IMG/VR virus record: IMGVR_UViG_3300031938_000011
Span: 1-39,231 of that record
Reading direction: 5' to 3' (one strand)
Origin: a virus
Taxonomy: Duplodnaviria; Caudoviricetes
Length of the DNA stretch: 39,231 nucleotides
Under the pieces are notes generated by a model. The model searched no databases. It was not told the DNA's origin and was given only the letters and a program-made list of their open reading frames with translations. Within the stretch, counting starts at the first letter, position 1. Every line of letters begins with the position of its first letter. Shown here piece by piece: positions 19,479 through 39,231 of the stretch. A program made the position numbers and the translations under genes.

Positions 19479-20101
19479 CAGCCCGTGGCGCGGTTGGCGT
19501 GGATCGCGCGCAGTTCGGCCAACCTGCTGCCCTTGGCCTGCGTGGCCGCCACACCAGCGGCGTTACGGCTGGCCGGTGTGGCCAGCATTTCGCGCAGCAC
19601 GTTGAGCATGTGCGGCACCAGGTACAGGGCCTTGGTGGCCTCGATCCCGTCACCGCTCGCCACCGCCGCGTCCACCCGATCCGCGATGGTGCGCCCGGCC
19701 TCGATGAGTGCCGCGTCCACGTCCTGCGTGTGCTGGCTGGTCGCCGCGCTGGCGTCGAATGCCTTGCGCAACGTGTGATCGTTGGCGGCGGGGTCGGACA
19801 GCACCTTGTCCCGGCGCTCGCTGATCTTGAGCACCCGGTCCACGGCGTCAAGTTCGCCCGCCTGAGCCTTGGGCCACACGGCCATGTGCAGCCGGTCGAG
19901 CCGGTCCACCTCAAGGGCTTGCTGCACCTGCACGTCCACGGTGCCCAGGGCCACGTCGAACCAGGCCCGGGCTGTATCGGGCGTGATGTTCAGCGCCTGG
20001 CTGATCGTGTCGAACGACGCGCCACCACGGCGAAGGCCCAACACCCGTTGGGCAATCTCGGGGTCGTACCCCTCGGGAAGTTCGCGCTTCATCTTGCTCA
20101 C
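19478..20101 (-). CDS. terS: Terminase small subunit with N-terminal HTH
   Basis: HTH LRRGGASFDTISQALNIT; C-terminal LNVLREMLATPASR...LAELR; abuts terL; GTGA overlap with folE stop. Confidence 0.75.
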   Translation of the reverse strand: MSKMKRELPEGYDPEIAQRVLGLRRGGASFDTISQALNITPDTARAWFDVALGTVDVQVQQALEVDRLDRLHMAVWPKAQAGELDAVDRVLKISERRDKVLSDPAANDHTLRKAFDASAATSQHTQDVDAALIEAGRTIADRVDAAVASGDGIEATKALYLVPHMLNVLREMLATPASRNAAGVAATQAKGSRLAELRAIHANRATG

Positions 20102-20709
20102 GGCGTCGTCGCCGCCAGGAACTCGGCGCGGAGCGCGGGGTCGGACTTCATGACCCCCCGCACGTCGTAGGTGCGCATCTGGCCCCCGGCCTTGGCACCA
20201 CGCAGCCGCATGCACGTGTGCACGCCCTGGATGAGCACGCCCACCCCTGCGGGCTGCACGTACTGCACCAGGGCGTCAGCGATCTGTGCTGTAAGCCGTT
20301 CCTGCACCTGCGGGCGGGCGGCGTAGTGCGCGACGGTGCGGGGCAGTTTCGACAGCCCCACCACGCGCCCGACGTTGGGCACGTAGGACACCCACGCGGT
20401 GCCGGTGAACGGCAACAGGTGGTGCTCGCACAGCGACACGAACGGAATCGGCCCCACGGTCACCGGGGTGCCGGGGTGCCGCACGTCGGAGAACACCACG
20501 CCCAGGTCGTGCTCGGGATCGCCCGGCTGGGCGGCCATTTCCAGGTACGCGCGCACCACCCTCTCGGGGGTGTTCACCAGGCCGGGCCGGTGCGGGTCCT
20601 CGCCCATCAGGCGAAGGAGCGCCCGCACGCCCGCCACGGCGTGCACGTAGTCCGGCTCCTCCTGGGCCTCGTCGTACGTGCGGGGCCGCTTGGCGGTGGT
20701 GGTGGTCAT
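20098..20709 (-). CDS. folE: GTP cyclohydrolase I
   Basis: TPERV, SLCEHHLLPF, GLSKL, RPQVQERLT, HTCMRLRG. Confidence 0.95.
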   Translation of the reverse strand: MTTTTAKRPRTYDEAQEEPDYVHAVAGVRALLRLMGEDPHRPGLVNTPERVVRAYLEMAAQPGDPEHDLGVVFSDVRHPGTPVTVGPIPFVSLCEHHLLPFTGTAWVSYVPNVGRVVGLSKLPRTVAHYAARPQVQERLTAQIADALVQYVQPAGVGVLIQGVHTCMRLRGAKAGGQMRTYDVRGVMKSDPALRAEFLAATTP

Positions 20710-21413
20710 CGGCCCCTTTCCTCTCCGTACAGCAGCGTGTGCAGCCTCGTGGTGGTGTTGAAGCCCTCGCGCTCAATGGCGGGGGCGAGTGTGCGGTGCC
20801 GGTGGATCAACTGCCCGGCGTTGGTGCCCTCGGGCATGATCCACACGTGCTCGCGGGCGATGCCCAACTCCTGCGTGAGGTCGCGCACGGTGGCCACGTC
20901 GGCGGGTACCGAGCACACGAACTTGAACGCGGCGAGGCCCGCCCGGGCGAGCACCGCCCAACCGGCCAGGGCCTCGGGCTTGAGGCGGCGCTTCAACGGG
21001 TCGCGGGTGTTGATCTTGGGGCTCACCGTCGTGTGCTCCACGTGCCGGTCCCACCACCACGGCGGGGCAATGGTGCCGTTGGTTTCGGCGTGCCACGTCC
21101 ACTCGTCGGTGAGCAACGGGGCGAGGTTCTTGTGGTGCACCAACGGCTCGCCACCGGACAGCACCGCGAGGTCAACGCCCAAGCCACGCAGCCGGTCGTG
21201 TATCTCGGCCACCTCGGTGGGCGGGCATTCCTTGGCCACGTCGTACCGGGTGGTGTCCCACGTATAGGGGGTGTCGCACCATTCGCACGACAGGTTGCAC
21301 AGCCCGAGCCGCACGAACCCCGTACGCCTCCCCGCGTACGGCCCTTCCCCTTGCCACGTTGGGCCGAACACCTCCGACACCGGCAACGGGGCTTGCGGCG
21401 GGGTGATGGTCAC
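20706..21413 (-). CDS. queE: 7-carboxy-7-deazaguanine synthase (radical SAM)
   Basis: QGEG, CNLSCEWCDT (CxxxCxxC), SGGEP, ETNGT, VSPK, RLH; GTG start overlapping the queD stop. Confidence 0.93.
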   Translation of the reverse strand: MTITPPQAPLPVSEVFGPTWQGEGPYAGRRTGFVRLGLCNLSCEWCDTPYTWDTTRYDVAKECPPTEVAEIHDRLRGLGVDLAVLSGGEPLVHHKNLAPLLTDEWTWHAETNGTIAPPWWWDRHVEHTTVSPKINTRDPLKRRLKPEALAGWAVLARAGLAAFKFVCSVPADVATVRDLTQELGIAREHVWIMPEGTNAGQLIHRHRTLAPAIEREGFNTTTRLHTLLYGEERGR

Positions 21414-21778
21414 GGGGTCCACCACGCCCACGTCTTGGGCGTCTCGCTCACACCCACGGCGACCTCCACGCCCTCGGGCAGGCTGAGGATCGTGGGCGCG
21501 ACGCGCGCCACCGCGTAGGCCAAGTTCTCGGCGGTGGGGTTGGCGTCCATCCAGTCGTTGAGGTGCCGGTGGTCCAGCACGTCGTCCACCATGGCCTTGA
21601 TCGGCGCGAGGTCGCCGTAGTCGAACAAGAACCCTTGCGACATCAGCGATTCACCGGCCAGGGCGATGCGGAGCACGTAGTTGTGGCCGTGCAGCCGCCC
21701 ACATTGGTGCCCCTCGGGCAGGCCGAGGAGCACGTGACTGGCGGAGAAGTGAAAGTCCTTCGTGATGGAGAAAGTCAT
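21410..21778 (-). CDS. queD: 6-carboxy-5,6,7,8-tetrahydropterin synthase
   Basis: FSASH, CGRLHGHNY, LDHRHLN, PTAENLA, SETP. Confidence 0.95.
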   Translation of the reverse strand: MTFSITKDFHFSASHVLLGLPEGHQCGRLHGHNYVLRIALAGESLMSQGFLFDYGDLAPIKAMVDDVLDHRHLNDWMDANPTAENLAYAVARVAPTILSLPEGVEVAVGVSETPKTWAWWTP

Positions 21779-22659
21779 GCGCGCGGAGGTCCCATCTTGT
21801 GGGCGGTGATCGGTTCACGGTTGGACGGGCTGGCGGCGAGGTACAGCCGAAAGCCCGGGTTGCGTACCTGCTGGGCCGCCTCCACCCGCATGTACGCGCG
21901 GGCTGATGCGACGGTGGCCCAATCGGTGCGGGCCTTGGCCAACTCCGGCCCCACGTGCTTGGTGGAGGAGTAGCCGTACTGCGCCATGGCGAGGGGATCG
22001 CCCCCGTAGGCGCGGACAAGGGGCACGTAGTGCGGCGGCACCGGCTGGCCGTAGGTGAACGACACCAGCCGCCCGTCACGGTTGGCCAGGTACACCATCG
22101 GCATGCGTCGCGGGATCGTCCACGACGACGAGTCGCACGATGCCCACGGCAACTTGCGCAGGGCGTCGGTAGACGTGATCCCCAAGCCATGCAGCGATGT
22201 GCCGTACTTCCGGGCGATCTTGTGCACCTGGATGAACTGGCGCATGAGCATCTGTTGCTGGCGGAAGCGCGCCACCGCGCCACCAATCGAGACGTATTTC
22301 GCCACCCGGCACAGCCGGTCCAACTCGGCCACGGGTGACCCGATGTGCCACGTGGGCACGATCAGCACCGTGTCCCCCATGCGCTCCACGGCGGTGTCGT
22401 AGTTGCGCGCCGAGGATCGCCAATCGTTGATGACATCGAGGGCGAACGCGAAGCGCATATGGCGTTTGTGCTGGTCGAGCCAGTCGAGGTAGGCCCGGTG
22501 GTTGATCGGCTTGCCGCTAGTCCACGCCGTGAAGGCCCCGCTGTCGATGACCAGATCGACGCCCGACAAGGAGGCGAACGCGGCGGCGTCCATCTTGGAC
22601 GCGTACGCGTACGACAGGAGCATGCGCGGCTGGTCGGGCCACCGCTCGGTGGCGGTCAC
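21775..22659 (-). CDS. dpdA: TGT-like 7-deazaguanine DNA transglycosylase (DpdA family)
   Basis: IDSGAF, ALDVI, PTWH, IGG, HGLG, CDSSSW motifs; directly upstream of queD-queE-folE. Confidence 0.8.
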   Translation of the reverse strand: MTATERWPDQPRMLLSYAYASKMDAAAFASLSGVDLVIDSGAFTAWTSGKPINHRAYLDWLDQHKRHMRFAFALDVINDWRSSARNYDTAVERMGDTVLIVPTWHIGSPVAELDRLCRVAKYVSIGGAVARFRQQQMLMRQFIQVHKIARKYGTSLHGLGITSTDALRKLPWASCDSSSWTIPRRMPMVYLANRDGRLVSFTYGQPVPPHYVPLVRAYGGDPLAMAQYGYSSTKHVGPELAKARTDWATVASARAYMRVEAAQQVRNPGFRLYLAASPSNREPITAHKMGPPRA

Positions 22660-23258
22660 GCCGATTCACGAACCTGCGCACGGTTGAGCAACTGCACCAA
22701 CCGCTCGGGCTCGGTGTCGCCGTCCTCGGCCCCCAACGCGTCGTAGAACTGCCGGTGCACGTCGGGCGGCACCTTCATGGAGATGGACAGCCACAGGTCA
22801 TCGTCCTTGGGCTCCCCGTATTGGGCTTCCAGGGCGTCGAGGTCGGAGGCGGTGACCTTGGCCAGGATGTCGGCCACGTCGTCCGGGGTGTACCCGGTGC
22901 CGTCAGGATCGCCCAAGCCCGCAAGCAGTTCGGCCAACACCTCGTCCTCGTACGAACCGAGGTCGGCGGCCCGGTTGTCCACCAGGACGATGCGCGCGGC
23001 CTCGTCGTCGTCCACGTCCACGAACGTGGCCGCGATCTGATCCCAGCCCAACTCCTTGGCGGCGGCCAACGTGTGGTTGCCCGCCAGCACCTCAAACGTC
23101 TTAGCCCGCACGACGATGGGCCGGTACTGGCCGTGGTGTTTGAGGCTGTCCACGATCACATCGACGTTGCCCCGGCGCGGGTTGCGCCCGTACGGCTGTA
23201 GCCCGTCGATGGGAACCGCCAACGGGGTAAGCGTTTCGGGGATGGTTGCGCGGACCAC
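22656..23258 (-). CDS. ParB/Sulfiredoxin-like N-terminal domain protein
   Basis: PYGRNPR, GQYRPIVV, VLAGNHTLAAAKELGW, LVDNR. Confidence 0.85.
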   Translation of the reverse strand: MVRATIPETLTPLAVPIDGLQPYGRNPRRGNVDVIVDSLKHHGQYRPIVVRAKTFEVLAGNHTLAAAKELGWDQIAATFVDVDDDEAARIVLVDNRAADLGSYEDEVLAELLAGLGDPDGTGYTPDDVADILAKVTASDLDALEAQYGEPKDDDLWLSISMKVPPDVHRQFYDALGAEDGDTEPERLVQLLNRAQVRESA

Positions 23259-23267
23259 CGGGGGCTC

Positions 23268-23348
23268 CTAGACGTTGAAAGCGATCAGCAGTACGGCCAG
23301 GACGAGGACGACGAGCGCCACGAGCAAGACCAAGTTGGCGTTGTTCAC
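23268..23348 (-). CDS. 26-aa single-TM peptide (below the ORF track cutoff)
   Basis: MNNANLVLLVALVVLVLAVLLIAFNV*; GTGA overlap with the upstream stop; fills the gap before the ParB RBS. Confidence 0.6.
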   Translation of the reverse strand: MNNANLVLLVALVVLVLAVLLIAFNV

Positions 23349-23527
23349 GGGGTGCCCTCGCTGTCCGGGGTGCGGGCGGCGGCCTTCTTGGCGGCACGCT
23401 TGCGGGTGGCGGCGGCGGCCTTCTTCGCGGGCTGCTGCACGACCCATCCCTGGGTCTGGTACTCCGCGACGGTGGCGGCGGGTACCTCGATGCTGCGGCC
23501 CCCGCTTGCGTGCTTCACCTTGGGCAT
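23345..23527 (-). CDS. Small basic protein with AKKAA-rich tail
   Basis: MPKVKHASGGRSIEV...PAKKAAAATRKRAAKKAAAR; RBS AAGGAGGA. Confidence 0.7.
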   Translation of the reverse strand: MPKVKHASGGRSIEVPAATVAEYQTQGWVVQQPAKKAAAATRKRAAKKAAARTPDSEGTP

Positions 23528-23543
23528 CGGTCCTCCTTGTTGG

Positions 23544-24431
23544 TCATACGGTGGCCAGTTGCATGTCGAGGTCGCCGCCACGGCACGAGAACGGCCCGCA
23601 TGACGAGTCGTTGTTCTCGCGCTCGGCCAGGGCGTCACCACGGCGGCGGCGCTCGCGGTCGATGGGCGCTTGGGCGAGCGGCAACAGGCTGGCGTGGAGG
23701 TACATCTGGCCGCGCAACGTGTGGCCCTGGGCGTTGGCCCGGGCGGTGCCGTTGCGGATCGCCTCATCGAAGGCCACAGCGTCGGCCCATTCGTCGGGCC
23801 GGGTGTCGCGCAGTTCGCGCCACTGCCGGTTGCCGTGGAAGGGGCACCCGATGCACGCGGACTTGGCGGTACTGCCGAAACCGTGCGCGTCGAGGAGCGC
23901 CGCACAGTCGTCGCGCGTCATGTCCAGTTCCAACAGGGGGAAGCGGTTGCGGGCGTACTTCACATCGCTCGACTTCGCCCGCATGAACTCATCGCGGCTG
24001 ATGCCCACCCATTGCTCGACGTACATGCCGCGCGGCACCCGCCTGGGGTGCGGGTAGCCGAGCAACTGCCGAACCTGCCGCTTGATCGGCTTCAACTTGT
24101 ATTCGTTCGTGCATTGCCGTCTGACCATGCCCTTCTTGCCGTCAGGGTTGCGCACGAACATGGGCATGGAGGCGAACCTGTGCTCGGGGTCGAGGGCGTC
24201 GGCGCGAATGTTGCCCTGGCTCACCCGGTGCAGCGGGATGCCTGCCGGGGCCAGCACCTCAGCGTCCAGCCGGTCGAGGTGTTCGTACACGGCCCGGGGC
24301 TCCCAGCCGGTGTCCGCGAAGATCGCGGCGTCCACCTTGGGCAAGTCCCCCACCGCCGACATGACGGCCAGCGCCGTGCTCTGCACCCCAGCCCCCAACG
24401 ACAGCACCCGCAGCGCGGGCTCCGTCGTCAT
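23544..24431 (-). CDS. PAPS-reductase-like adenine nucleotide alpha-hydrolase (PP-loop) protein
   Basis: VLSLGAGVQS, FADTGWE, RQCTNEYKLKPI, VGISRDE, FPL, KSACIGCPF. Confidence 0.8.
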   Translation of the reverse strand: MTTEPALRVLSLGAGVQSTALAVMSAVGDLPKVDAAIFADTGWEPRAVYEHLDRLDAEVLAPAGIPLHRVSQGNIRADALDPEHRFASMPMFVRNPDGKKGMVRRQCTNEYKLKPIKRQVRQLLGYPHPRRVPRGMYVEQWVGISRDEFMRAKSSDVKYARNRFPLLELDMTRDDCAALLDAHGFGSTAKSACIGCPFHGNRQWRELRDTRPDEWADAVAFDEAIRNGTARANAQGHTLRGQMYLHASLLPLAQAPIDRERRRRGDALAERENNDSSCGPFSCRGGDLDMQLATV

Positions 24432-24757
24432 GCGGGCGGTTGGAGGTCGGCGGCGGTCACCCCGGCCATGGCGTCCCACACCTGGTTGACCTGGTACAGG
24501 AGGTCACCGTCGGCAGCGTCCAAGCCCGCTTGGGCAATGGTCACGTTGGCGAGGACCGGCCAGGTGAACAGGTCGGCGTAGTTGTCGGGGTTGGCCAGCA
24601 CCTCGCGGGCCAGGGCCAGGCGCTTGTCGTGCCGCTGCTCGCTCATGGTGCTGGCGTCCTCGGACCACACGGCCACGGCGGCGGTGGCAATGGTGACCTT
24701 CACCCGGGCCTTGAACGTGGCGGCCTCGGCCAGGTCGGCGGTGTTCATGTACGACAC
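24428..24757 (-). CDS. Hypothetical protein
   Basis: 109 aa with protein-like composition; RBS AAAGGA; ATGA overlap with the next gene. Confidence 0.7.
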   Translation of the reverse strand: MSYMNTADLAEAATFKARVKVTIATAAVAVWSEDASTMSEQRHDKRLALAREVLANPDNYADLFTWPVLANVTIAQAGLDAADGDLLYQVNQVWDAMAGVTAADLQPPA

Positions 24758-29906: not shown

Positions 29907-30106
29907 CGCTTCCACTCCGTGCCGTCGTGGAATCCCTCGGTGTAGCCGTTGGCGTACGCGGTCTCTACGGGGCTACGGCGACGCCCGTGCAAGCGCGCAC
30001 GGCGGTTGCCGGTGGTCGTGGTGCACCAGTCCCCTGGCCGCGCTTCACAGCGCGGACAGGGGACCAGCAGCACCAGCCCCTCGGTGGGTGACTCGTGACG
30101 GTTCAT
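29903..30106 (-). CDS. Small zinc-finger protein
   Basis: CPRCEARPGDWC...H; ATGA coupling. Confidence 0.65.
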   Translation of the reverse strand: MNRHESPTEGLVLLVPCPRCEARPGDWCTTTTGNRRARLHGRRRSPVETAYANGYTEGFHDGTEWKR

Positions 30107-30393
30107 CGGGGCGACGCCTGCCGGGGTATCAGCCGGTAGCACCACAGCCCGTTGCCGTGATACCGACGCTCCACGGTGTGCCCGCCGTGCTTGGGCTTGC
30201 GGAGGTCACGCAGCCGGGCGCTCACGGACGCCTCGGGGTATCCGAGGCGGGCCGATAGTTCGCTCAACGTGTGCCACCGCCCGTCAGCCATGGCGGCCCG
30301 CACAGCCCGTTGCTGGCGGGCCAACCGCTCCCCGTCCCGGTCGGCGTCGTACGTCGCACCGTCGTAGGCGCGAGCCATGCCCTGCATGCTCAT
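30103..30393 (-). CDS. Winged-HTH DNA-binding protein
   Basis: WHTLSELSARLGYPEASVSARLRDLRK...YRL. Confidence 0.7.
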   Translation of the reverse strand: MSMQGMARAYDGATYDADRDGERLARQQRAVRAAMADGRWHTLSELSARLGYPEASVSARLRDLRKPKHGGHTVERRYHGNGLWCYRLIPRQASPR

Positions 30394-30821
30394 CAGAAAG
30401 GGGGCTCGCTGCTGGCGGGCTGGCTGAACTGCCGCGACGACAGCCGCCGCATGAAATCGCCCGCCGCGTTGCGGTCGGCGTCGGTGACCTTGCCGTCCAG
30501 AATCCACGGAGCCGACTGGCCCTTCTTCGCCTCGCCCCGACCGAGGCGGGCAAGCACCTTCTGCCCGATGCTCCCCCGCAACTGGCCCTGCATGACGCGC
30601 GGGAAGATGAGCGCATCGCTGCGCACCAAGCCAGCGTGCGGGCCGTCGATCACGTACACGTTGGCGCGCACGGCGCTGGTCTTTTGGCCCGGCTCGGTGA
30701 ACGCCGTCTGAATGTGCTCGATGTCCTCGGTTGGCTCGACAACCAACAGGCTGCCCATCAGGCCTTGCAGGTCGAGGGGATCGCCGCCCGGCGCGGACGG
30801 TGCTGCGAACTCATCGGACAT
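30393..30821 (-). CDS. Probable single-stranded DNA-binding protein
   Basis: 142 aa, beta-rich; C-terminal tail EPPF; follows the exonuclease. Confidence 0.5.
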   Translation of the reverse strand: MSDEFAAPSAPGGDPLDLQGLMGSLLVVEPTEDIEHIQTAFTEPGQKTSAVRANVYVIDGPHAGLVRSDALIFPRVMQGQLRGSIGQKVLARLGRGEAKKGQSAPWILDGKVTDADRNAAGDFMRRLSSRQFSQPASSEPPF

Positions 30822-30860
30822 GGTGGTGGTGCTCCTTCTTCATAGGGGTTGGGTGTTGCA

Positions 30861-31862
30861 TCACGCCAGGGCCGCAACGCGGGCCTTGGCGAGGTTGGTG
30901 AGGTCGTCAGTCCATGCGGCCCGGTGGTCGCGCCACAGGGCGTCCAGGGCCGCACGGTCGGGGGCATTGGCCACGGCGGTGGCGAGGTCGATCAGCACCT
31001 CGCCGTCCTGCACCGGCTCGGACGGCACCGGGGCATCCCACGGGGCGAACAGGTCGCGCATCTTCTTAGCCCGTTGGGCGCGCACGGCCCGGCACACCTT
31101 CACCGCCTCCCATCCGGCCAGGAGGTCCACCCAATGCAGGGTGCACCGCCCGGTCCCAGCGGGCAGGTGGATCACGATGCCCCGCTCGATGCTCGCCCCG
31201 TGCGCGTCCATGCGCTGGTCGGTGGTCACGTCGTAGGGCGTACTGCGTGCGTACACAGCAAGTTGCGCCGCGATCTTGAGCGAGCCGAACTGCACGTCTC
31301 CGGTCTTGAGGTCCGCGATGTACCGCTTGCCGCCCACCTGCACCACGCGGTCAGGGGTGCCGCCGATCCCGAGGAAGTCCTGGACGGTGAACTGCTCGAT
31401 CTGCACGTGCTTGAGTGGCCCGGTGGCGACCTTGTACGCGGCGAGGTCGGGCACGTACGCGTCGGCAGGGCGCGGGTGCACCAGGTGGGGCACCGGCACG
31501 GCGGCGGGGTCCTCGCCACGGTCGGCGGCCTCGGTCACCGCGTGCATGTACGTGCCCCACCGAGCGGAATCGCCTGCCCCCGCAGCCTCCTTGGCTTCCT
31601 CGCACAGGTCGTTCAACGGCGTCTTGTGCTCGTCGTTGTCGAGCGACAGGCCCGCGATGGTGTCGCGCAGGGTGGCGCTGGTGGCCACGCCCATGGCGAC
31701 GTGCCGCTCCTTCCAGCGCACGATGTTGAAGTTGTCCTCAATGGCTCCCACGTACGTGGTGCACCGCGTGTAGGTGGTGCGACGCCCGCCCGGGGTCAGC
31801 ACGTACGGACGGCCCCACCGATCCCGCTCGGGCTCGGGCCTGGGGCTGGTGAACTCAGTCAT
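30861..31862 (-). CDS. PD-(D/E)xK (RecE/Cas4-like) exonuclease
   Basis: RDRWGRP, WGTYMH, GTPDR, IADLKTG, QLAVYA; RBS GAGGAG. Confidence 0.85.
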   Translation of the reverse strand: MTEFTSPRPEPERDRWGRPYVLTPGGRRTTYTRCTTYVGAIEDNFNIVRWKERHVAMGVATSATLRDTIAGLSLDNDEHKTPLNDLCEEAKEAAGAGDSARWGTYMHAVTEAADRGEDPAAVPVPHLVHPRPADAYVPDLAAYKVATGPLKHVQIEQFTVQDFLGIGGTPDRVVQVGGKRYIADLKTGDVQFGSLKIAAQLAVYARSTPYDVTTDQRMDAHGASIERGIVIHLPAGTGRCTLHWVDLLAGWEAVKVCRAVRAQRAKKMRDLFAPWDAPVPSEPVQDGEVLIDLATAVANAPDRAALDALWRDHRAAWTDDLTNLAKARVAALA

Positions 31863-32263
31863 GCGGTCGCTCCTCGGTTTGCTTCGTGGTCGTAGGGCTG
31901 CACCATGCGGAGGCGCTGCCGGTAGGTGGTCCCGGCCCACACGCCGAACAGCGCGCGGCCCGCACGGGCTTCGCCCAGGGCGTAGTCCAAGCACTCACGA
32001 CGCACCGGGCAGGCCCGGCACGTCAGCACCGCCATGCGGTTCTCAGCCGTGTAGCCGTCCGGCTGCGGGAACCAGGCCTCGGGGTTGCCGGTCGTGGCGC
32101 AAGCCGCGTACTGCATCCACGGCTCCCCCGTGCCGATGTCGTCAATGCGGGCCATGCATTCCTCGCTCGGGTTGGGCTTGGCGCGGTCGCACGTCCACCA
32201 GGGGCGACGCATGACCAGGTGCCGGTCGGGCATGTCGCTGTGAACTCGCACCTGATCGGTCAT
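31859..32263 (-). CDS. whiB: WhiB-family Fe-S transcription factor (alternative start 32155)
   Basis: AAC...WFP...CRACPVRREC...GVWAG. Confidence 0.9.
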   Translation of the reverse strand: MTDQVRVHSDMPDRHLVMRRPWWTCDRAKPNPSEECMARIDDIGTGEPWMQYAACATTGNPEAWFPQPDGYTAENRMAVLTCRACPVRRECLDYALGEARAGRALFGVWAGTTYRQRLRMVQPYDHEANRGATA

Positions 32264-32787
32264 CGCTCGCACCGGCTCAGGACGATGAGCGCGCCGGGGC
32301 GGTCGAGGAGGAACGGCAACGGGTACCGGGCGACGGTGCTCGGGTACACCTTGGTGGCGAACACCTGGCACACCCGGCTGTCGTCGGCGTACACCCCGGC
32401 GCTGGTCAGGGCGTCGCACGTGCTGCGGATCAACTTGTCAATGTCGGGCTTGGTGGCGTGATAGGCCGGAGCGTTGTCGCGCAACAGGTGCGCGAACTTG
32501 CCGGTCCGGTAGTGGCTGCGGGGGCGAGGCAGCGCGAACGTCACATGCATCAGCAGCCGGTCGGCGGCGGGCTCCCACCACGGCGACGTGGCCATGGCTT
32601 CCAACGCGGCTTGGCGAACGTCCGCGCGCCACGGCTTCACCTTCGCGCTTGATTCGACCATCACGCCGTGGCCTACGTGCCGCTTGCTGCCCTGGGGGGC
32701 GGGCGTGCCGTAGACGAGGATCACCAAGCGGCGTTGGGCTGCGGCGTTCGGCGGGTGCAACAGGGTTGGGGCAGTGACATCGGGCAT
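32260..32787 (-). CDS. rusA: RusA-like Holliday junction resolvase
   Basis: PAPQGSKR, VKPWR, KPDIDKLIRSTCDALT, YADDSRV. Confidence 0.9.
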   Translation of the reverse strand: MPDVTAPTLLHPPNAAAQRRLVILVYGTPAPQGSKRHVGHGVMVESSAKVKPWRADVRQAALEAMATSPWWEPAADRLLMHVTFALPRPRSHYRTGKFAHLLRDNAPAYHATKPDIDKLIRSTCDALTSAGVYADDSRVCQVFATKVYPSTVARYPLPFLLDRPGALIVLSRCER

Positions 32788-32826
32788 AGGGGCTCCCGGA
32801 GGTGTCGCGGAATGGGGGGAGGGGTG

Positions 32827-32940
32827 TTACCGGGTCAGCACGCCCACGACGGCGGCGAGCAGCACGACCCACAAGGTGGCGAGGGCGAACAAGATCGCTG
32901 CCCACACAGCGACCACCGGCCAATCGGTGCGCCGGTTCAC
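32827..32940 (-). CDS. 37-aa single-TM protein (below the ORF track cutoff)
   Basis: MNRRTDWPVVAVWAAILFALATLWVVLLAAVVGVLTR*; GTGA overlap with the upstream gene. Confidence 0.6.
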   Translation of the reverse strand: MNRRTDWPVVAVWAAILFALATLWVVLLAAVVGVLTR

Positions 32941-33182
32941 GGACGCTCCCGCTCGGTGGGCAGCGAGTGCAAGAAGGCCTCGATGCTGGCCACCGGGATC
33001 AGTCGCCGCCTGCCGATGAAACGGGATTCGATGATCTGCTCATCGAGCAGTTGGTAGGCCCGGGCGCGGCTGATGCTCAACATGCGGGCCATGTCCGAGA
33101 CGGTGACGGCGAGTGGCCCGGGCGATGTCGGCCTGGGCGGTGCCGCGCACAACGGACAGGGGTCGGTCGTGATGGTGCTCAC
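32937..33182 (-). CDS. Excisionase / Cro-like HTH DNA-binding protein
   Basis: VTVSDMARMLSISRARAYQLL...IGRRRLIPVASIEAFL. Confidence 0.85.
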   Translation of the reverse strand: MSTITTDPCPLCAAPPRPTSPGPLAVTVSDMARMLSISRARAYQLLDEQIIESRFIGRRRLIPVASIEAFLHSLPTERERP

Positions 33183-33386
33183 CAGGGGGGTGTCCTTGCT
33201 TGTCGAGACGTGTGAGGGCGGGTGCGGGCATGGGGCACCCGCCCTCCCGAGAGGGCGGAATCGGCTTGCAGGCTTGGGCTTTCGGCTCCTCGGACGGTCC
33301 GTTACCAGCCGTGCACCTGGTTGGTGACACGGGGCACGTGGACCCCGGGACCGCTTGACCCGGATGGGTCATTGCGGTGTGTCCAC

Positions 33387-33417
33387 ACAGTACCGATGAG
33401 TACTACCGACGTAGCAA
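33387..33417 (-). promoter_or_regulatory. Candidate leftward promoter for the xis-replication operon
   Basis: TTGCTA-19 nt-TACTGT on the minus strand. Confidence 0.4.
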
Positions 33418-33483
33418 TACCCGGTCAGGACCGGGTTTCTCGGGGTCCGTACCCGGTCCGCACCGCACCCCCGTGAGACCGTT

Positions 33484-33513
33484 TTGTGTACGGCTCGGGG
33501 GGTGCCTTACAGT
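33484..33513 (+). promoter_or_regulatory. Candidate rightward promoter for the RHH gene
   Basis: TTGTGT-18 nt-TACAGT. Confidence 0.5.
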
Positions 33514-33588
33514 GATGCAAGCACCAAGCATGTCTCCCCTGACAGCAGCCTGACGACCGACAACCGAACACGCAGGAAGCCACGACCC

Positions 33589-33801
33589 ATGCCGCGCATG
33601 CCCAAGTTCGATTACCGCTGCCCCGCCGACCTCCACCACCGCGTTGCTATCAAGGCCCAGCGCAACGGCGAGTCCATCGGGGCGGTGATCCGCCGAGCGT
33701 TCCAGGAGTACGTCAGCCCCAAGGCCACGGAGCGCAAGCACCCCAACCGCCGCGCCACCGACGAGGAGCGCGCCCGCCAGTCCCAGCAGCGCAGCGCATG
33801 A
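33589..33801 (+). CDS. Arc-like ribbon-helix-helix regulator
   Basis: MPKFDYRCPADLHHRVAIKAQRNGESIGAVIRRAFQEY resembles P22 Arc (MPQFNLRWP...AEENGRS); divergent from xis. Confidence 0.75.
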   Translation: MPRMPKFDYRCPADLHHRVAIKAQRNGESIGAVIRRAFQEYVSPKATERKHPNRRATDEERARQSQQRSA

Positions 33802-34022
33802 CGGGCCAGGACCGGCCCGTGCCTCGCCCCAAGGGCGTGCGCTACGTGATGCCCAACGGCGACACGTTGCCGCTGGAACTCACGTACGTGGGGCTGGACC
33901 AGGAGGACGGCACCCATATGTGGTTGGCGGCCACCCCGTTGCCGCCCGGTGCCGTGGTCCGCGCCGACATCTGGCCAGCGCACACCGGGGTGTCGTTCCC
34001 CGTGGGGCCACCCGATGCCTGA
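33798..34022 (+). CDS. Hypothetical protein
   Basis: 74 aa; ATGA overlap with the RHH gene; GC-rich third positions. Confidence 0.65.
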   Translation: MTGQDRPVPRPKGVRYVMPNGDTLPLELTYVGLDQEDGTHMWLAATPLPPGAVVRADIWPAHTGVSFPVGPPDA

Positions 34023-34554
34023 GCCACCCCGTCCAGGGCGACCGCAAGGCGGCATGAAATCCGACGCGGGCCGGGCCGCCTACTGGCGGTTGCAGTGGGA
34101 GTCGGCCATTGGTGCGTTGGCCGACCTCATCGCGGAGCACGCCGAAACCGTCGAGGAACTGGAACGGGCTGCGCGCCGAGGGTCAGGTGCCCCGAGGACG
34201 CCCGGACATACGACGAGGCCCCCACCCGGAGGTGGGGGCCTCGTCTCCCCTTGCAACGCCTGCCCGGCAACGCACCGACCCCCGGTGAACCGGAGGAGCG
34301 AACCTGACGGCTCACCGGGGGCGGCGTGCCAAACATTACCCCAGCGGCTCCATGTGCCCCGCTGGCGGCCCGGTGGCCCCGGGCCGGGGTGTCCGTACCC
34401 CCAGCCGGGGCCAGCGAGCCACAGCGCCCGCTACAGCCCTTGCGCGGCCACGTCGGGGTCGGGGTGCCCCGTGGCGTTCAGGTGCCGGGACAGCGAATAC
34501 GACGGCGAACGGGTGTCCTCCTCGGTGACCACGAAGTCACAGCCCGGCTCGTAG
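34015..34554 (+). CDS. Hypothetical protein (first ~55 codons look real, 3' end doubtful)
   Basis: AYWRLQWESAIGALADLIAEHAETVEELERAARR is helical; the frame then runs through hairpins and overlaps the minus gene. Confidence 0.35.
   Translation: MPEPPRPGRPQGGMKSDAGRAAYWRLQWESAIGALADLIAEHAETVEELERAARRGSGAPRTPGHTTRPPPGGGGLVSPCNACPATHRPPVNRRSEPDGSPGAACQTLPQRLHVPRWRPGGPGPGCPYPQPGPASHSARYSPCAATSGSGCPVAFRCRDSEYDGERVSSSVTTKSQPGS
34207..34327 (-). ncRNA. Candidate trans-acting anti-RBS small RNA
   Basis: -10 TAATGT at 34333-34338; long stem 34273-34326 with loop UCAGGUUCGCUCCUC; terminator hairpin 34212-34245. Confidence 0.5.
34212..34245. terminator. 15-bp perfect hairpin, probable terminator
   Basis: GACGAGGCCCCCACC cgga GGTGGGGGCCTCGTC at the convergence of plus and minus gene blocks. 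Confidence 0.75.
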
Positions 34555-35087
34555 CATTTCCACACGCCGTTGAGCCGGTCGCGCTGGTGCGGAATATCGG
34601 GCCGCCCGGGGCCGGGCTTGCCGTACCGCTCGACGTATTCCGCTGGGGTGATCGCATGCCGGGCATGCAAATGCTGGTGGAATGCGTCGAGGTTGATGCT
34701 GGGCGCACGTTGGGTGCAGCCCTTCACCCGACACTTGAACGGCCCCCACACCTTGGTGCCCGGCTTGGGGAACTTCCGGCCCCCGCTGTCCTTGGCTCGG
34801 TGTGATCGGTCGCCCGTCGTCGTCCTGACGCCCGGTGCCGGTTGGGCGAGGCCCACCGGCTGGCGTCCCACCATGCTGGGTTGCAGCGACACCCCCCACG
34901 CGTTGAGGGCGTCAATCAACGGGACCACCAACTCCTTGTGGTGCCGGTCGCACAGGTCGATGGTGCGTGGCTTGGCCCCCTTGGCGCTGGTGTCCAGGAC
35001 CATCGGCGCGGTGGTCGTGGCGGGCTCCTGGCTCTCGGGGTCGGCCTCCAAACACGCGTCGCACCACGCGATGATTTGCTTAGCCAT
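34431..35087 (-). CDS. Lsr2-like N-terminal domain fused to two C2H2-type zinc fingers
   Basis: MAKQIIAWCDAC...RTIDLCDRHHKEL; CRVKGC...HLHARH; CYEPGC...HLNATGH. Confidence 0.6.
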   Translation of the reverse strand: MAKQIIAWCDACLEADPESQEPATTTAPMVLDTSAKGAKPRTIDLCDRHHKELVVPLIDALNAWGVSLQPSMVGRQPVGLAQPAPGVRTTTGDRSHRAKDSGGRKFPKPGTKVWGPFKCRVKGCTQRAPSINLDAFHQHLHARHAITPAEYVERYGKPGPGRPDIPHQRDRLNGVWKCYEPGCDFVVTEEDTRSPSYSLSRHLNATGHPDPDVAAQGL

Positions 35088-35482
35088 CACTTCGCCCCCG
35101 TACTGCGTGCAATCGACACCACGCGGAGCATGCCCCGGCCCTCGCTGGTGATGCGTCCCATGCCCTCGACCAGGTAGCCCTCGGCGTGTTCGTACCGGGG
35201 CGAGCCGATCAGCATGCCGTTGATGTCGAGGTGTTGAATCTTCCGGGTGCGGCACCGGCTGCACCGCAACGTGCGCTCGTACCCGCCGTCACGGTGGCGG
35301 CCCACGTTGAACGGCAACCAGTTGTGGGTCAGTTCTCGGCATTGCAGGAACTTGTCTGACATGCCCTCGGCCAACTCGCGTACCTCGTCCAACGACGCCT
35401 CGCCAGGCGGTCGGTCCGATGTCGCGTTGGTGTCGGGGTGTGGCACGGCCTTGAGACGGCGTGCCGTGGCGGTTTGCGCCAT
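35087..35482 (-). CDS. Hypothetical Zn-ribbon protein
   Basis: CRELTHNW...CSRC; RBS GGAGGAG. Confidence 0.7.
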   Translation of the reverse strand: MAQTATARRLKAVPHPDTNATSDRPPGEASLDEVRELAEGMSDKFLQCRELTHNWLPFNVGRHRDGGYERTLRCSRCRTRKIQHLDINGMLIGSPRYEHAEGYLVEGMGRITSEGRGMLRVVSIARSTGAK

Positions 35483-35552
35483 GCGTTGCTCCTCCATGTT
35501 GGTTGCCCGGGCGGGGCGGTTGGGTGGTGCTTGGGTCACACGGTACGCGGGG

Positions 35553-35765
35553 TCATGTCGCGTGGGCGACGACCCCACGCGGGCGAGTCTCAGGGGCGCG
35601 GTGGCGCACCTGTTCGCGGAGTTGGTGCACCGCTCGGTCCAGGGCGGTGTCCACCTCGTTTCGGGTGGTCCCGTCCGGCCACAGCAGATATAGGTCGGCG
35701 GTGACCACACCGCCCTCCGGCAATGGGACGTTGATTGCCACGTAAGCCGTGCGCCGAGTCGCCAC
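35553..35765 (-). CDS. Hypothetical protein, first gene of an early operon
   Basis: GTG start MATRRTAYVAINVPL after GAGGAGGAGCGAAATC. Confidence 0.65.
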   Translation of the reverse strand: MATRRTAYVAINVPLPEGGVVTADLYLLWPDGTTRNEVDTALDRAVHQLREQVRHRAPETRPRGVVAHAT

Positions 35766-35825
35766 GATTTCGCTCCTCCTCGACGGGCGGAATAGGGGAG
35801 GGGCCGCCCGCCGTCGAATACCAGC

Positions 35826-35855
35826 AGAGTAAAGGCACCGGACCGGGACAAGCAA
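35826..35855 (-). promoter_or_regulatory. Candidate promoter
   Basis: TTGCTT-18 nt-TACTCT right after the terminator. Confidence 0.45.
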
Positions 35856-35890
35856 AAAGCCCCCCAGCCCGTGGGATGGGCTGGGGGGCT
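35854..35890 (-). terminator. Rho-independent terminator ending the integrase operon
   Basis: 13-bp stem AGCCCCCCAGCCC / GGGCTGGGGGGCT followed by a T run on the minus strand. Confidence 0.85.
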
Positions 35891-35914
35891 CTACGCGGGC
35901 CGTGGGCTGGCTGG

Positions 35915-36199
35915 CTAACGCACCAGCACCTCGGTGGGCGACACCACCACCACGCGGCTGTACGAGCCGGTTTCCACCAACTCCTGGGCCACCCGCATGG
36001 CCACGGGGTCCACCCGACTGGTCCGCACGTCACCCGTGCGGGGTCGGCCCAACGGTGCCGGGCGGCGGCGACGCTTGGCCGGTGCCTCGGCCATGGCCTC
36101 CACGGTGCTGGGGGCCACGGTGGCCGTGGTGCGGATCGTGGGGCCTGCCGGGTCGGGCTTGCGTCGGGGGTCCTTCACCCGGCCCACCTTGGCGGTCAT
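35915..36199 (-). CDS. Basic hypothetical protein coupled to integrase
   Basis: MTAKVGRVKDPRRKP...; ATGA overlap with the integrase stop. Confidence 0.65.
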   Translation of the reverse strand: MTAKVGRVKDPRRKPDPAGPTIRTTATVAPSTVEAMAEAPAKRRRRPAPLGRPRTGDVRTSRVDPVAMRVAQELVETGSYSRVVVVSPTEVLVR

Positions 36200-37398
36200 G
36201 AGGCCACCACGCCCAACGTCGCGCCCTCGCCCATGAACTGGTCGAACGACTCGGCGGCCTGCATGGTCGCGGCCTCGTTGCCGTCCTGGTAGCGGTACGT
36301 CACGGCCACGGTGCTGTGCCCCAGCCATTCGGCCACGACGCGCGGTTGGTTGCCAGCCGACTCCAACAATTGGGCGCACGTGTTGCGCGCGCTGTGCAGC
36401 GTGTACGCCCCCACCCCGGCCTTGGCCAACACCCGGTCCCAGTTGTAGCGGTCCTGGGTGGCGCTGTACGGCGTGCGCTTGCCGGTGCAGAACACCAACT
36501 GTTCGGGGTCGGCGGTCCACCCCTTGGCGGCGTGTTCGGCCTTGAGCGCCCGCAGCCGGGCGGCCACGCGGGGCACCAACGGCACCACGCGGTCCCGGCT
36601 CGCCTTCGACTTGGGCGTGGTGAACACCAGCCCCTTGCCGACCTCGCGGCACACGCTGCGGCGAACCACGAGGAACGGCCTCGGCGCGTCCAGGTACACG
36701 TCGGACCACCGGAGCGCCAACGCCTCGCCCTGACGCAGCCCGCACAGCAATGCGACGTACGGGCGGGGGTTGTCGCCCGCCGCTGTCAGCACGGCCTCGG
36801 CCTGGGGCTTGGTCATGACCTCGCGGCGGCCCTGTTCGGTGCCGGGCGCGTCCACCAACTCGGCCACGTTGCGGCCCACCTTCCCCCAGCGGAAAGCCAC
36901 CTTGAGCGCCTGGTGCAACAACACGTGCACCTGACGGATGGTGCCCTCAGCCTTGCCCGCCTCGCGCATGGTCGTGTAGAGCCGCTCCACGTGCTCGGGG
37001 CCGAGCCGGTCGAGCCGGTGGTGGCCGAGGTGCGGGATCAGCCACGTGTTGACCCGCTGGCGCGCGCCCTTGATCGTGTTCACCTTCCAGCCCTTCTTGG
37101 CGGCGGTGGTCACGAGCCATTCCTCGATCCACTGCCCCACCGTCACGGCCTTGCCGATCACCGCCACGCCCTTGCGGTCGGCGGCGGCCAGGTCGCGCAT
37201 CTTGGCCGCCACCTCCTCCTGGCTGCGGCCATACAGCGTCTTGCGCACCCGCCTGCCGTCCGGGGCGGTCACGGTCACCCGCGCCCGCCAATAGCCCTTG
37301 CAACGGTGCTTGGGCCGCTTCCCGTCAACCAGCGCGGGGCATTCCTGGGTGTGGTGGCGGTCGATGGTGCCCTCGCCGTTGGTCCTACGTCGTGCCAT
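36196..37398 (-). CDS. int: Tyrosine integrase
   Basis: RRTNGEGTI arm domain; catalytic GLRQGE, TPKS, HSAR, LGHS, TYRY intact; RBS GAGGAG. Confidence 0.95.
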   Translation of the reverse strand: MARRRTNGEGTIDRHHTQECPALVDGKRPKHRCKGYWRARVTVTAPDGRRVRKTLYGRSQEEVAAKMRDLAAADRKGVAVIGKAVTVGQWIEEWLVTTAAKKGWKVNTIKGARQRVNTWLIPHLGHHRLDRLGPEHVERLYTTMREAGKAEGTIRQVHVLLHQALKVAFRWGKVGRNVAELVDAPGTEQGRREVMTKPQAEAVLTAAGDNPRPYVALLCGLRQGEALALRWSDVYLDAPRPFLVVRRSVCREVGKGLVFTTPKSKASRDRVVPLVPRVAARLRALKAEHAAKGWTADPEQLVFCTGKRTPYSATQDRYNWDRVLAKAGVGAYTLHSARNTCAQLLESAGNQPRVVAEWLGHSTVAVTYRYQDGNEAATMQAAESFDQFMGEGATLGVVAS

Positions 37399-37427
37399 GT
37401 TCGTTTCGCTCCTCGATAGGGGTTGAT

Positions 37428-37454
37428 GCCCCCCGGCCACGGTGGCCGGGGGGC
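37428..37454. terminator. 12-bp hairpin just upstream of the integrase RBS (attenuator-like)
   Basis: GCCCCCCGGCCA cgg TGGCCGGGGGGC. Confidence 0.55.
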
Positions 37455-37464
37455 GGGGGGTTGG

Positions 37465-37722
37465 TTAGGCGTCGCACGCCCGGGCGCTGCACGTCCAGGC
37501 GCTCAGCCGCACCACCTGGCCGGTGGTGTTGTCGTACCACTCGGAGAATCGGACGGCGTGGTCGCTGCCCTCCTGCACCACGTGGAAGCCGAACGCCATG
37601 AGGTCCTGACGGGCGGCCACGATCACCGGGGCCAATTCGGCCACCGTGGCGGCGGTGCCGATGCACACCGGGCGCTCGTCGTCGGTGCGCTTGCTGGCGT
37701 GTGCGTGCGGCGTGGCGGTCAT
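37465..37722 (-). CDS. Hypothetical protein
   Basis: MTATPHAHASKRTDDERPVCIG; ATGA coupling to the upstream gene. Confidence 0.65.
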   Translation of the reverse strand: MTATPHAHASKRTDDERPVCIGTAATVAELAPVIVAARQDLMAFGFHVVQEGSDHAVRFSEWYDNTTGQVVRLSAWTCSARACDA

Positions 37723-37991
37723 GCGCGTGCCGCCTGGTCGGCGTCGAACCCACAGTCGTCGCACAGCCGGGCGTCGCCCCGCTCGTGCACGTCCTCGACG
37801 GCGAACACCAAGCCGCAGCCGGTGCACGTGTCGGTGTCAATCAGCGTGATGGGACACCCGCCGATGCACGCGTCACCGCATGATGCCTGGTCGCACTCGG
37901 GGGTGTGATCGGCGGCGGCGTCGCCCTCCGGGTAGAGCCGGTCGAGTTCGGCCTGGCAATCCGCGCTCGGTGTGGTGAATCCGTGGGACAT
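37719..37991 (-). CDS. Cys/Asp-rich Zn-binding hypothetical protein
   Basis: CTGCG...LCDDCG plus further Cys; RBS GAGGAGCGAAC-ATG. Confidence 0.7.
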   Translation of the reverse strand: MSHGFTTPSADCQAELDRLYPEGDAAADHTPECDQASCGDACIGGCPITLIDTDTCTGCGLVFAVEDVHERGDARLCDDCGFDADQAARA

Positions 37992-38034
37992 GTTCGCTCC
38001 TCATTTGGCCGCCCGGGGTGGGTCGGCGCTACGC

Positions 38035-38310
38035 GCCAACGGTACCCCAACGTATGGCCCAATTAGCAGCCCAACGCCCCTGGACGCCCCTGGACGCCAA
38101 TGGACACCGGAGGTGGGGAATCGCCTTACGGCTAAGACGATTGTGGACGTGGGTGGACACCAATGGACACATGCCGGGGGGCATGGTGGATGTACTCGAA
38201 GTAATCGCAGTTTGGCAAAGTTTCGTGGGTGCCATTCGCGTACTGACCTGCGGTTTTACCCCCGTGGGGGTGGCCCAACGGGGCGGCGTGGCCCCTTTTT
38301 TGGCCCAACG
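38035..38310. other. Candidate attP region with repeat arrays
   Basis: TGGCCCAA at 38055, 38271, 38301; TGGAC(G/A) at 38081/91/101 and 38144/54/64; AT-richer centre; CTGACCTGCGGTTTT motif. Confidence 0.55.
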
Positions 38311-38336
38311 GTGCACGGCGCGTGCGCGGAGCGAGT

Positions 38337-38366
38337 TTGCGCGGCCCCCGGTCGGCTACTTAGGGT
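38337..38366 (+). promoter_or_regulatory. Candidate sigma-A-type promoter
   Basis: TTGCGC-18 nt-TAGGGT. Confidence 0.5.
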
Positions 38367-38665
38367 GTCGTTCGTCCCACCGTCAGCACGGGGCATGGGA
38401 GCGCCGCCCGGAATAGGGGCCGGTCGGCGTTCAACGCGTAGCACCCAGGGGGGGCAGGCGCGGACGTGCTGGCGGTGGCACCAAATCGGCCCCCGGGGTG
38501 CGTGTCTCCCCCGTCGCGTACCTCGGGGGTCAAACCGGCGCATCGGGGCGCGAGTCGATCCCAGGTCCACCCCGGTGCGCCACCCGGTGGCCTCGCCCCG
38601 ACGCCATGCCCCCCTATCGGTGCGGCCAGCGGGGCCACCGGCTCAACGTGAAGGAGCGCCCCGGT

Positions 38666-38902
38666 ATGGCCGTCCAGGTAGGCAGCGCCGTCAGCAGCCC
38701 GTGCCCCGCATGCGGCACCGTGGCCAAGCGCACGGCGTACGACGTGGGCAGCGGCCCCGAACTGTCCTGCGCCAGTTGTGAGTGGTGCTGGGGGGCCAAC
38801 GGCCAACCCCTGCGCCCGGTCACCCTGGGCGATGTGTGGGCGCACCGCACCCAGGGCACCCTGCCCGCCACGCTCCCCGAGTGGCGCGAGGATGACCGCT
38901 GA
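38666..38902 (+). CDS. Zn-ribbon hypothetical protein
   Basis: CPACG...CASC; RBS AAGGAG. Confidence 0.65.
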   Translation: MAVQVGSAVSSPCPACGTVAKRTAYDVGSGPELSCASCEWCWGANGQPLRPVTLGDVWAHRTQGTLPATLPEWREDDR

Positions 38903-39129
38903 TGGAGCACACCGCCGAGAATGACGCGAGGTTCACAGTCCAGCCCGGGACGGAGAACTACTACGACCGGATGACGTTGCAGGCTGCCCTGGCCGACACG
39001 ATCACGATGATCCAAGAGTGGAACTACAGCCAGGACCCACACGGCTACTGCCACTTCCGTCCCATGTTGATCCGACTGGTCGAGGCCGCCGAGCGCGTCA
39101 TTCCGCCCGAAAGGGGGCAGGTGCAGTGA
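38902..39129 (+). CDS. Hypothetical protein
   Basis: 75 aa; TGATG coupling; RBS GAGG. Confidence 0.65.
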   Translation: MEHTAENDARFTVQPGTENYYDRMTLQAALADTITMIQEWNYSQDPHGYCHFRPMLIRLVEAAERVIPPERGQVQ

Positions 39130-39231
39130 CCGCCGACCTGCTGCGCTGGTCCGCCGTGCGGGCACAGCGGCGGTGTGCGCGGCGCGGGCACGACTGGTTC
39201 CCCAACCTTGGCCCCAGCGAGTTCATCGTGC
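39126..39231 (+). CDS. Hypothetical protein, continues across the window join to position 68
   Basis: GTGA overlap; MTADLLRWSAVRAQRRCARRGHDWFPNLGPSEFIV continues as HREVHPDAPPRDG...* if the window is circularised. Confidence 0.5.
   Translation, partial: MTADLLRWSAVRAQRRCARRGHDWFPNLGPSEFIV

Follow-up and report, generated by a model that had tools for sequence, protein, structure and literature searches.

The window examined here (the whole stretch of DNA that was analysed, 39,231 nt in length) is the near-complete 39-kb genome of a temperate, siphovirus-like phage with 69% GC that originates from soil metagenomes. A locus identical to this genome (L039) supplies about 355 nt more (L039:13218-13572), and these join both ends into a circle. 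Nearly all genes are carried by the minus strand, and when read in this direction their order begins with an attP-like region (in which short repeats are present), ORF 37991, ORF 37722, a hairpin, the tyrosine integrase gene (37398-36196), and a terminator. Next are a three-gene operon (ORFs 35765, 35482, and 35087), the hairpin element with which we are concerned here, and a convergent plus-strand operon with an RHH gene as its first member, after which follow excisionase-like, RusA, WhiB, exonuclease, replication, 7-deazaguanine, and virion genes. By eye, the product of ORF 35087 appears Lsr2-like, with no family match, and on the same strand ORF 35765 is preceded by a terminator (35892-35856) and a promoter-like sequence (TTGCTT-N18-TACTCT). 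Upstream of the integrase operon, the heptamers GTGTCCA/GCGTCCA are repeated at 38085-38175, and these are likely the integrase arm-type sites of attP. Elsewhere, a 7-deazaguanine DNA-modification cluster (20098-24479, minus strand) includes genes for GTP cyclohydrolase I, QueD/PTPS, QueE, and a tRNA-guanine transglycosylase-like protein, and is accompanied by ParB-like and PAPS-reductase-like genes. As for the host, the exonuclease relatives in Kribbella (from a search of that order alone) and the style of the terminator tentatively suggest an actinobacterium.

An earlier note on this DNA had described the phage as having no CI-like repressor. In part this stands, in that no CI/XRE domain was found among the 45 ORFs scanned against PHROGs, nor among the 19 + 25 scanned against Pfam. 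However, an Arc-like RHH gene (33583-33801, plus strand; PHROG 6506, E 3e-7) faces the HTH_17 excisionase-like gene (33182-32937, minus strand) divergently, which is a position expected of a repressor, and we consider it a repressor candidate. Any argument from a missing repressor is therefore weak.

Hairpins at the convergent junction

At the junction of the convergent operons, four hairpins stand in series. Foremost among these is a long hairpin on the minus strand (34266-34330), with a lower stem of about 20 bp (G-U pairs included) that is made from the arms 34330-34308 and 34292-34266. At -48.8 to -49.0 kcal/mol, its stability ranks third among 780 minus-strand hairpins. When both strands were folded, the minus strand was favoured, as the earlier note had supposed, with -49.0 kcal/mol (z -6.2) versus -41.8 kcal/mol (z -5.1) for the plus strand, in which the AGG is paired. 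The G-U pairs, together with a candidate -10 box, likewise favour the minus strand, which is also the strand of the target mRNAs. At the tip of the hairpin, the segment 34292-34307 is the complement of (G)GAGGAGCGAAC, a sequence to which we refer as the tag. While the apical 15 nt (34307-34293) had been taken as an open loop, only six of these (UUCGCU) are open in the predicted fold; AGG/CCU adds three closing pairs, with an opening cost of 4.5 kcal/mol.

The candidate -10 box is TAATGT (34333-34338, minus strand), the sole TANNNT of the intergenic stretch, albeit TANNNT is a weak pattern. It is preceded by GGGG, as is the TACCGT box that lies ahead of ORF 37991, and the transcript start predicted from it (about 34327-34325, 5-7 nt past TAATGT) coincides with the foot of the stem. 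Upstream of TAATGT there is no recognisable -35 box, and a strict sigma-70 scan of 30000-39231 returned no promoters. The candidate promoter would have its -35 position within an inverted repeat (34340-34364, minus strand; 7 bp with an 11-nt spacer), possibly an operator. Further upstream, directly past the stop of ORF 35087-34431, another strong minus-strand hairpin (34365-34422; rank 2 of 780) could shield the unit against transcription from upstream.

On the other side of the long hairpin, a perfect and GC-rich 15-bp palindrome (34212-34245) that lacks a U-tract sits between the convergent operons. When 401 genomes of the Kribbella order were searched, similar palindromes turned up in 36, and nine of the ten best lie just behind gene ends. 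Judged from these, the palindrome is a terminator-type element, and one would be required at a convergent junction even if there were no sRNA.

Entering this region from the opposite direction is a small plus-strand gene (34015-34554) with homologs in three other loci (L038, L040, and L041) and with third-position changes in sequencing runs X1 and X4. Compared with L040, there is an additional base near 34166, and the homology ends at about 34180. Because no frame of this gene stops ahead of the terminator hairpin (stops are at 34286, 34305, and 34552), its mRNA may lack a stop codon or undergo read-through.

An extended tag at early-gene ribosome-binding sites

The core of the tag, GAGGAGCGA, occurs five times in the genome against 0.21 expected, a count that none of 100 shuffles reached. 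Four of the copies are on the minus strand, every one at the ribosome-binding site (RBS) of an early gene, and the exact complements to the hairpin tip are 9 to 11 nt in length and lie 3-8 nt ahead of the start codons. These are found at ORF 37991, the first gene after the attP-like region (37992-38002; 11 nt, with pairing that can span 13/14 nt through the AUG), the integrase (37405-37414; 10 nt), ORF 35765, the first gene past the terminator and promoter-like site (35769-35779; 11 nt), and the PD-(D/E)XK exonuclease (30861-31862), where the tag (31867-31875; 9 nt) falls within the final codons of the gene for WhiB. All positions in the earlier note (TAATGT, stem arms, apical 15 nt, the inverted repeat at 34212-34245, and the four complements) proved correct, though two 8-nt matches had escaped its list. 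One is a weaker minus-strand tag at ORF 35482 (35488-35495; PHROG 4480), with a net pairing energy of -4.3 kcal/mol, and the other is at what could be an RBS close to the endolysin start (1793). The tag is absent from the excisionase and other early genes. Immediately upstream of the ORF 35765 tag is a leader hairpin (35778-35815, minus strand) whose loop, CCCCUCCCCUAUU, is rich in C; this motif recurs almost unchanged ahead of RusA (32810-32825, minus strand), and CCCCTAT is found repeatedly ahead of several early starts.

The fifth copy of GAGGAGCGA is the lone reversed one (34293-34301, plus strand), and a minus-strand RNA would show the complement of the tag at this place. Alternatively, the plus-strand GGAGGAGCGAAC-CTG could be a real or decayed gene start, as the earlier note had conceded. 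Its spacing is the same as at ORF 37991, a TGA is closely upstream (34286), and a 74-codon frame follows. However, GC by codon position in this frame (0.73/0.84/0.67) is not coding-like when compared with real genes (about 0.68/0.51/0.90), and the frame overlaps ORF 35087-34431 in antisense and sits behind a terminator-type hairpin. Moreover, the likeness of the loop region to the L040 gene end is a chance one, with 42% of windows scoring equally high. We thus regard a gene start here as highly improbable.

For the specificity of the match, we used two hand-picked sets, one of 17 RBSs and one of 40 starts that had been curated. When the 40 starts were ordered by the energy of their duplex with the loop, the four tagged ones took ranks 1-4. 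Net pairing after the opening of both RNAs, computed for eight starts, came to -11.8, -8.7, -8.5, and -7.6 kcal/mol at the four tagged starts, versus +4.4 (capsid), -0.1 (major tail), and -1.4 kcal/mol (ssb-like gene) at untagged AGGAG starts. An accessible seed complementary to the target RBSs, as is generally looked for in base-pairing sRNAs, is thus predicted here in the form of six open nucleotides. Among the 780 minus-strand hairpins, just this one has complements of at least 9 nt to four starts, and the runner-up (one hairpin) reaches two; on the plus strand, none of 857 hairpins reaches four starts and three reach three. When flanks were permuted among the 17 RBSs with AGGAG held fixed, p was 0.012 for at least four sites of at least 9 nt and 0.0015 for the sum of the top four, and random anti-SD loops matched four sites at a frequency of 0.0085. 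Because of these low values, the match sits beyond that of a generic anti-SD loop, with p values that are modest for a scan of many genomes and not overwhelming.

Pairing beyond the hairpin tip fared less well. The additional CCGACCC match upstream of ORF 37991, listed in the earlier note, is at chance level (5 of the 40 starts show a 7-nt match to the same arm), and extended strand invasion through the stem arm is not energetically favoured. In co-folding, the stem never breaks.

Comparison with other RNAs and with the SAS of cluster K

The c4 RNA of phages P1 and P7 and the CI RNA of phage P4 govern lysogeny through base pairing. A place for the hairpin unit within the c4 type was not upheld by the Rfam search, in which no family reached its cut-off and no C4 model was matched. 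According to the available text of PMC5320573, c4 has three stem-loops with pairing loops a' and b', and a loop of this phage RNA occludes an RBS in trans in a lysogeny-linked manner. The last of these is where the likeness lies, whereas the present unit has two hairpins and a single pairing loop, with no three-stem fold, and its targets are dispersed gene starts rather than its own operon as described there for c4. Other traits of c4 are its processing by RNase P from a precursor and its part in immunity. A further likeness is with the 6C sRNA of high-GC Gram-positives, for which the available text of PMC6486639 reports, in mycobacteria, C-rich hairpin loops that pair with several mRNAs without Hfq or another chaperone. 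In contrast, 6C is host-encoded, with two C-rich loops and broad targets, as given in the same source, and the Rfam 6C model, whose cut-off is 47 bits, scored 21 bits here, on a different stretch of sequence.

Homologs of the hairpin were also sought. With blastn of 33000-39231 and of the unit itself against GenBank phages, no copy of the hairpin was obtained, only short terminator-like matches. Three pattern searches for loop and tag in viral contigs gave 24 loci (none hairpin-like with repeated tags), about 200 loci (119 looked at, none related), and one unrelated locus, and searches with neighbouring proteins led to distant or mosaic loci without the hairpin. When 48 exonuclease loci and seven others were scanned for tag plus loop, the present phage, Anaya, and Adephagia were recovered, with only weak or coding-region matches elsewhere. 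The 74-75 interval of phage Giles, a putative small RNA site, showed no anti-RBS loop. Reads from four DNA runs showed no hairpin variant. The small plus-strand gene recurs in a contig of 5,760 nt from run X1, with 25 differences over 132 nt. About 4.8 kb away on the opposite strand, this contig has a 21-nt stretch with one difference to 34290-34310, possibly the start of a tagged gene or else the hairpin in inverted orientation.

Closer to the tag are the start-associated sequences (SAS) of cluster K mycobacteriophages. In the available text of Pope et al. (PMC3203893), SAS are located at non-structural gene starts, four K1 phages have a single reversed copy that is left unexplained, and the role of SAS is described as unknown there (2011) and in the available texts from 2024 (PMC11373665) and 2025 (PMC12699233). 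Like the SAS of cluster K and of cluster EF Microbacterium phages (PMC7302621, as far as its available text describes them), the present tag is asymmetric, contains AGGAG, is kept beyond the SD core 3-9 nt ahead of the start codons of non-structural genes, and keeps to one orientation save for a lone reversed copy that lies apart from gene starts, with the partial match near the endolysin start as an exception to the non-structural pattern. Still, it has another sequence, 9-11 nt in 4-5 copies as opposed to the 13 nt in 10-19 copies given for SAS in the available text; it tags the integrase; and no ESAS-type repeats were noticed in the present phage. The cluster K SAS proper, GGGATAGGAGCCC, matches once within two mismatches (0.79 expected).

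In Anaya and Adephagia, we observed a long hairpin on the mRNA strand of an intergenic stretch (between genes 92 and 93 in Adephagia), and its 10-nt loop is the reversed SAS. As stated in the available text of PMC11373665, late transcription of Adephagia starts in the interval that holds this hairpin, which is part of a late leader, whereas the hairpin of the present phage stands alone between convergent early operons. Among 19 cluster K phages (four from PMC3203893 and 15 chosen for divergence among 45 of 182 records), the anti-SAS loop is exact in eight, degenerate and C/U-rich in six (such as Hammy), and absent from the stretch fetched in five (such as Pixie), with SAS kept in all 19; here, about 2.7 kb was compared for 15 of the 19, and homology of the TM4 leader is doubtful. 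In seven aligned K1-type hairpins, all close kin, the loop is invariant (7/7), while two of the 17 stem pairs differ at both bases and several at just one. AnnaSerena has ten SAS and no reversed copy within two mismatches. Taken together, these sequence comparisons show that the design recurs with another sequence, and likewise that an anti-tag loop is not always needed by SAS. The proposed mode of action is then like that of c4 and 6C, with membership in neither, and the tag is SAS-like but different in sequence. No paper that assigns the reversed SAS to the loop of a hairpin was found in a literature search that was thin on subscription journals and whose scope excluded supplements and the ZoeJ paper.

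The cluster K late leader (L035:30600-30880, homologs L210-L224) is itself a conserved and highly structured RNA of about 300 nt with at least three hairpins, and in the 182 records it is often annotated as a hypothetical gene. Additionally, the CTCCT pentamer is absent from the coding (plus) strand over 33 kb of Pixie (L036) and 28 kb of TM4 (L037), which suggests avoidance of the anti-SD sequence in SAS-bearing arms.

That SAS also occur without an anti-tag bears on another explanation, in which the tag would be a site for a protein, either an RNA-binding translational repressor or nuclease, or a stoperator-like DNA site for an RHH, WhiB, or Lsr2-like protein, with the reversed copy serving the plus-strand transcript or acting as a decoy. 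The available text of Pope et al. (PMC3203893) left RNA or protein open for SAS, and plus-strand read-through is conceivable, since no plus-strand frame stops ahead of the terminator hairpin. However, all four of the tag copies coincide with the SD, the plus-strand fold is the weaker and pairs the AGG, and a DNA site has no need of a hairpin tip, for which we consider this explanation very unlikely.

A putative antisense RNA and its mode of action

In our interpretation, with a probability of about one half, the minus-strand unit 34327-34208 would be an sRNA of about 120 nt, the hairpin tip of which pairs with the tag and so occludes the RBSs of four early genes. Transcription would proceed from TAATGT, and the open UUCGCU would nucleate with the AGCGAA of the tag. 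The weak 3-bp top helix would then open to give a duplex of 9-11 bp that covers the Shine-Dalgarno sequence, with the CGAA(C) extension conferring specificity over other AGGAG sites. As a constant brake, such an RNA could act on the integrase, the first genes of two leftward operons, and the exonuclease, working alongside the Arc/RHH protein; in the simplest role, these genes would be silenced in the lysogen or after integration.

The same pairing may also be had without a promoter of its own, if the hairpin were the 3' end (or a processed piece) of the 35765-34431 mRNA and provided negative feedback on this operon and the integrase. Consistent with this, ORF 35087-34431 ends 100 nt ahead of the hairpin on the same strand, both leading genes of the operon (35765 and 35482) are tagged, the -35 box is absent, and the K1 loop belongs to a long late transcript and not to a free sRNA. 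Set against it are the strong hairpin at 34422-34365, which could halt upstream transcription, and a TANNNT box that is correctly spaced from the stem foot, and we view a 3'-end origin as quite unlikely.

Somewhat less unlikely, though still improbable in our estimate, is that there is no pairing at all and the hairpins are a mere transcript boundary of convergent operons (with tail-less actinobacterial terminators), with the tag as a strong RBS that is favoured locally and its reversed counterpart as a chance event or relic. The serial arrangement of the four hairpins, the final one being a common gene-end palindrome, would be expected of such a boundary, as would the failure to find a homolog in the collections searched, and the degenerate loops in 6 of the 19 cluster K phages show that such loops can drift. 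But the match runs past the SD core into the exact bases that are common to the four starts, it is placed at the hairpin tip, and the K1 loop is invariant while the K1 stem varies.

The antisense-loop interpretation is then what appears to fit the sequence best, together with the K1 parallel. The RNA-based translational switch that the earlier note had proposed is retained in part on these grounds, as a putative one, shorn of its argument from a missing repressor and mindful that the terminator hairpin would be needed without any sRNA.

More tentatively, and with rather less than even odds, SAS in general could be the addresses for a phage-made antisense hairpin, whereby one RNA switches scattered early genes, here including the integrase. 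The lone reversed SAS of K1 would then be the same device set in a late leader for early-to-late shut-off, and unrelated phages would have reached this design with different pairs of tag and loop. If true, dispersed phage genes would be coordinated through RNA-addressed control of translation, and an RNA would help to set integrase levels. Moreover, the anti-tag loop makes the role of SAS testable in one experiment, and the K1 parallel brings to this a cultured phage with published genetics (Adephagia, M. smegmatis).
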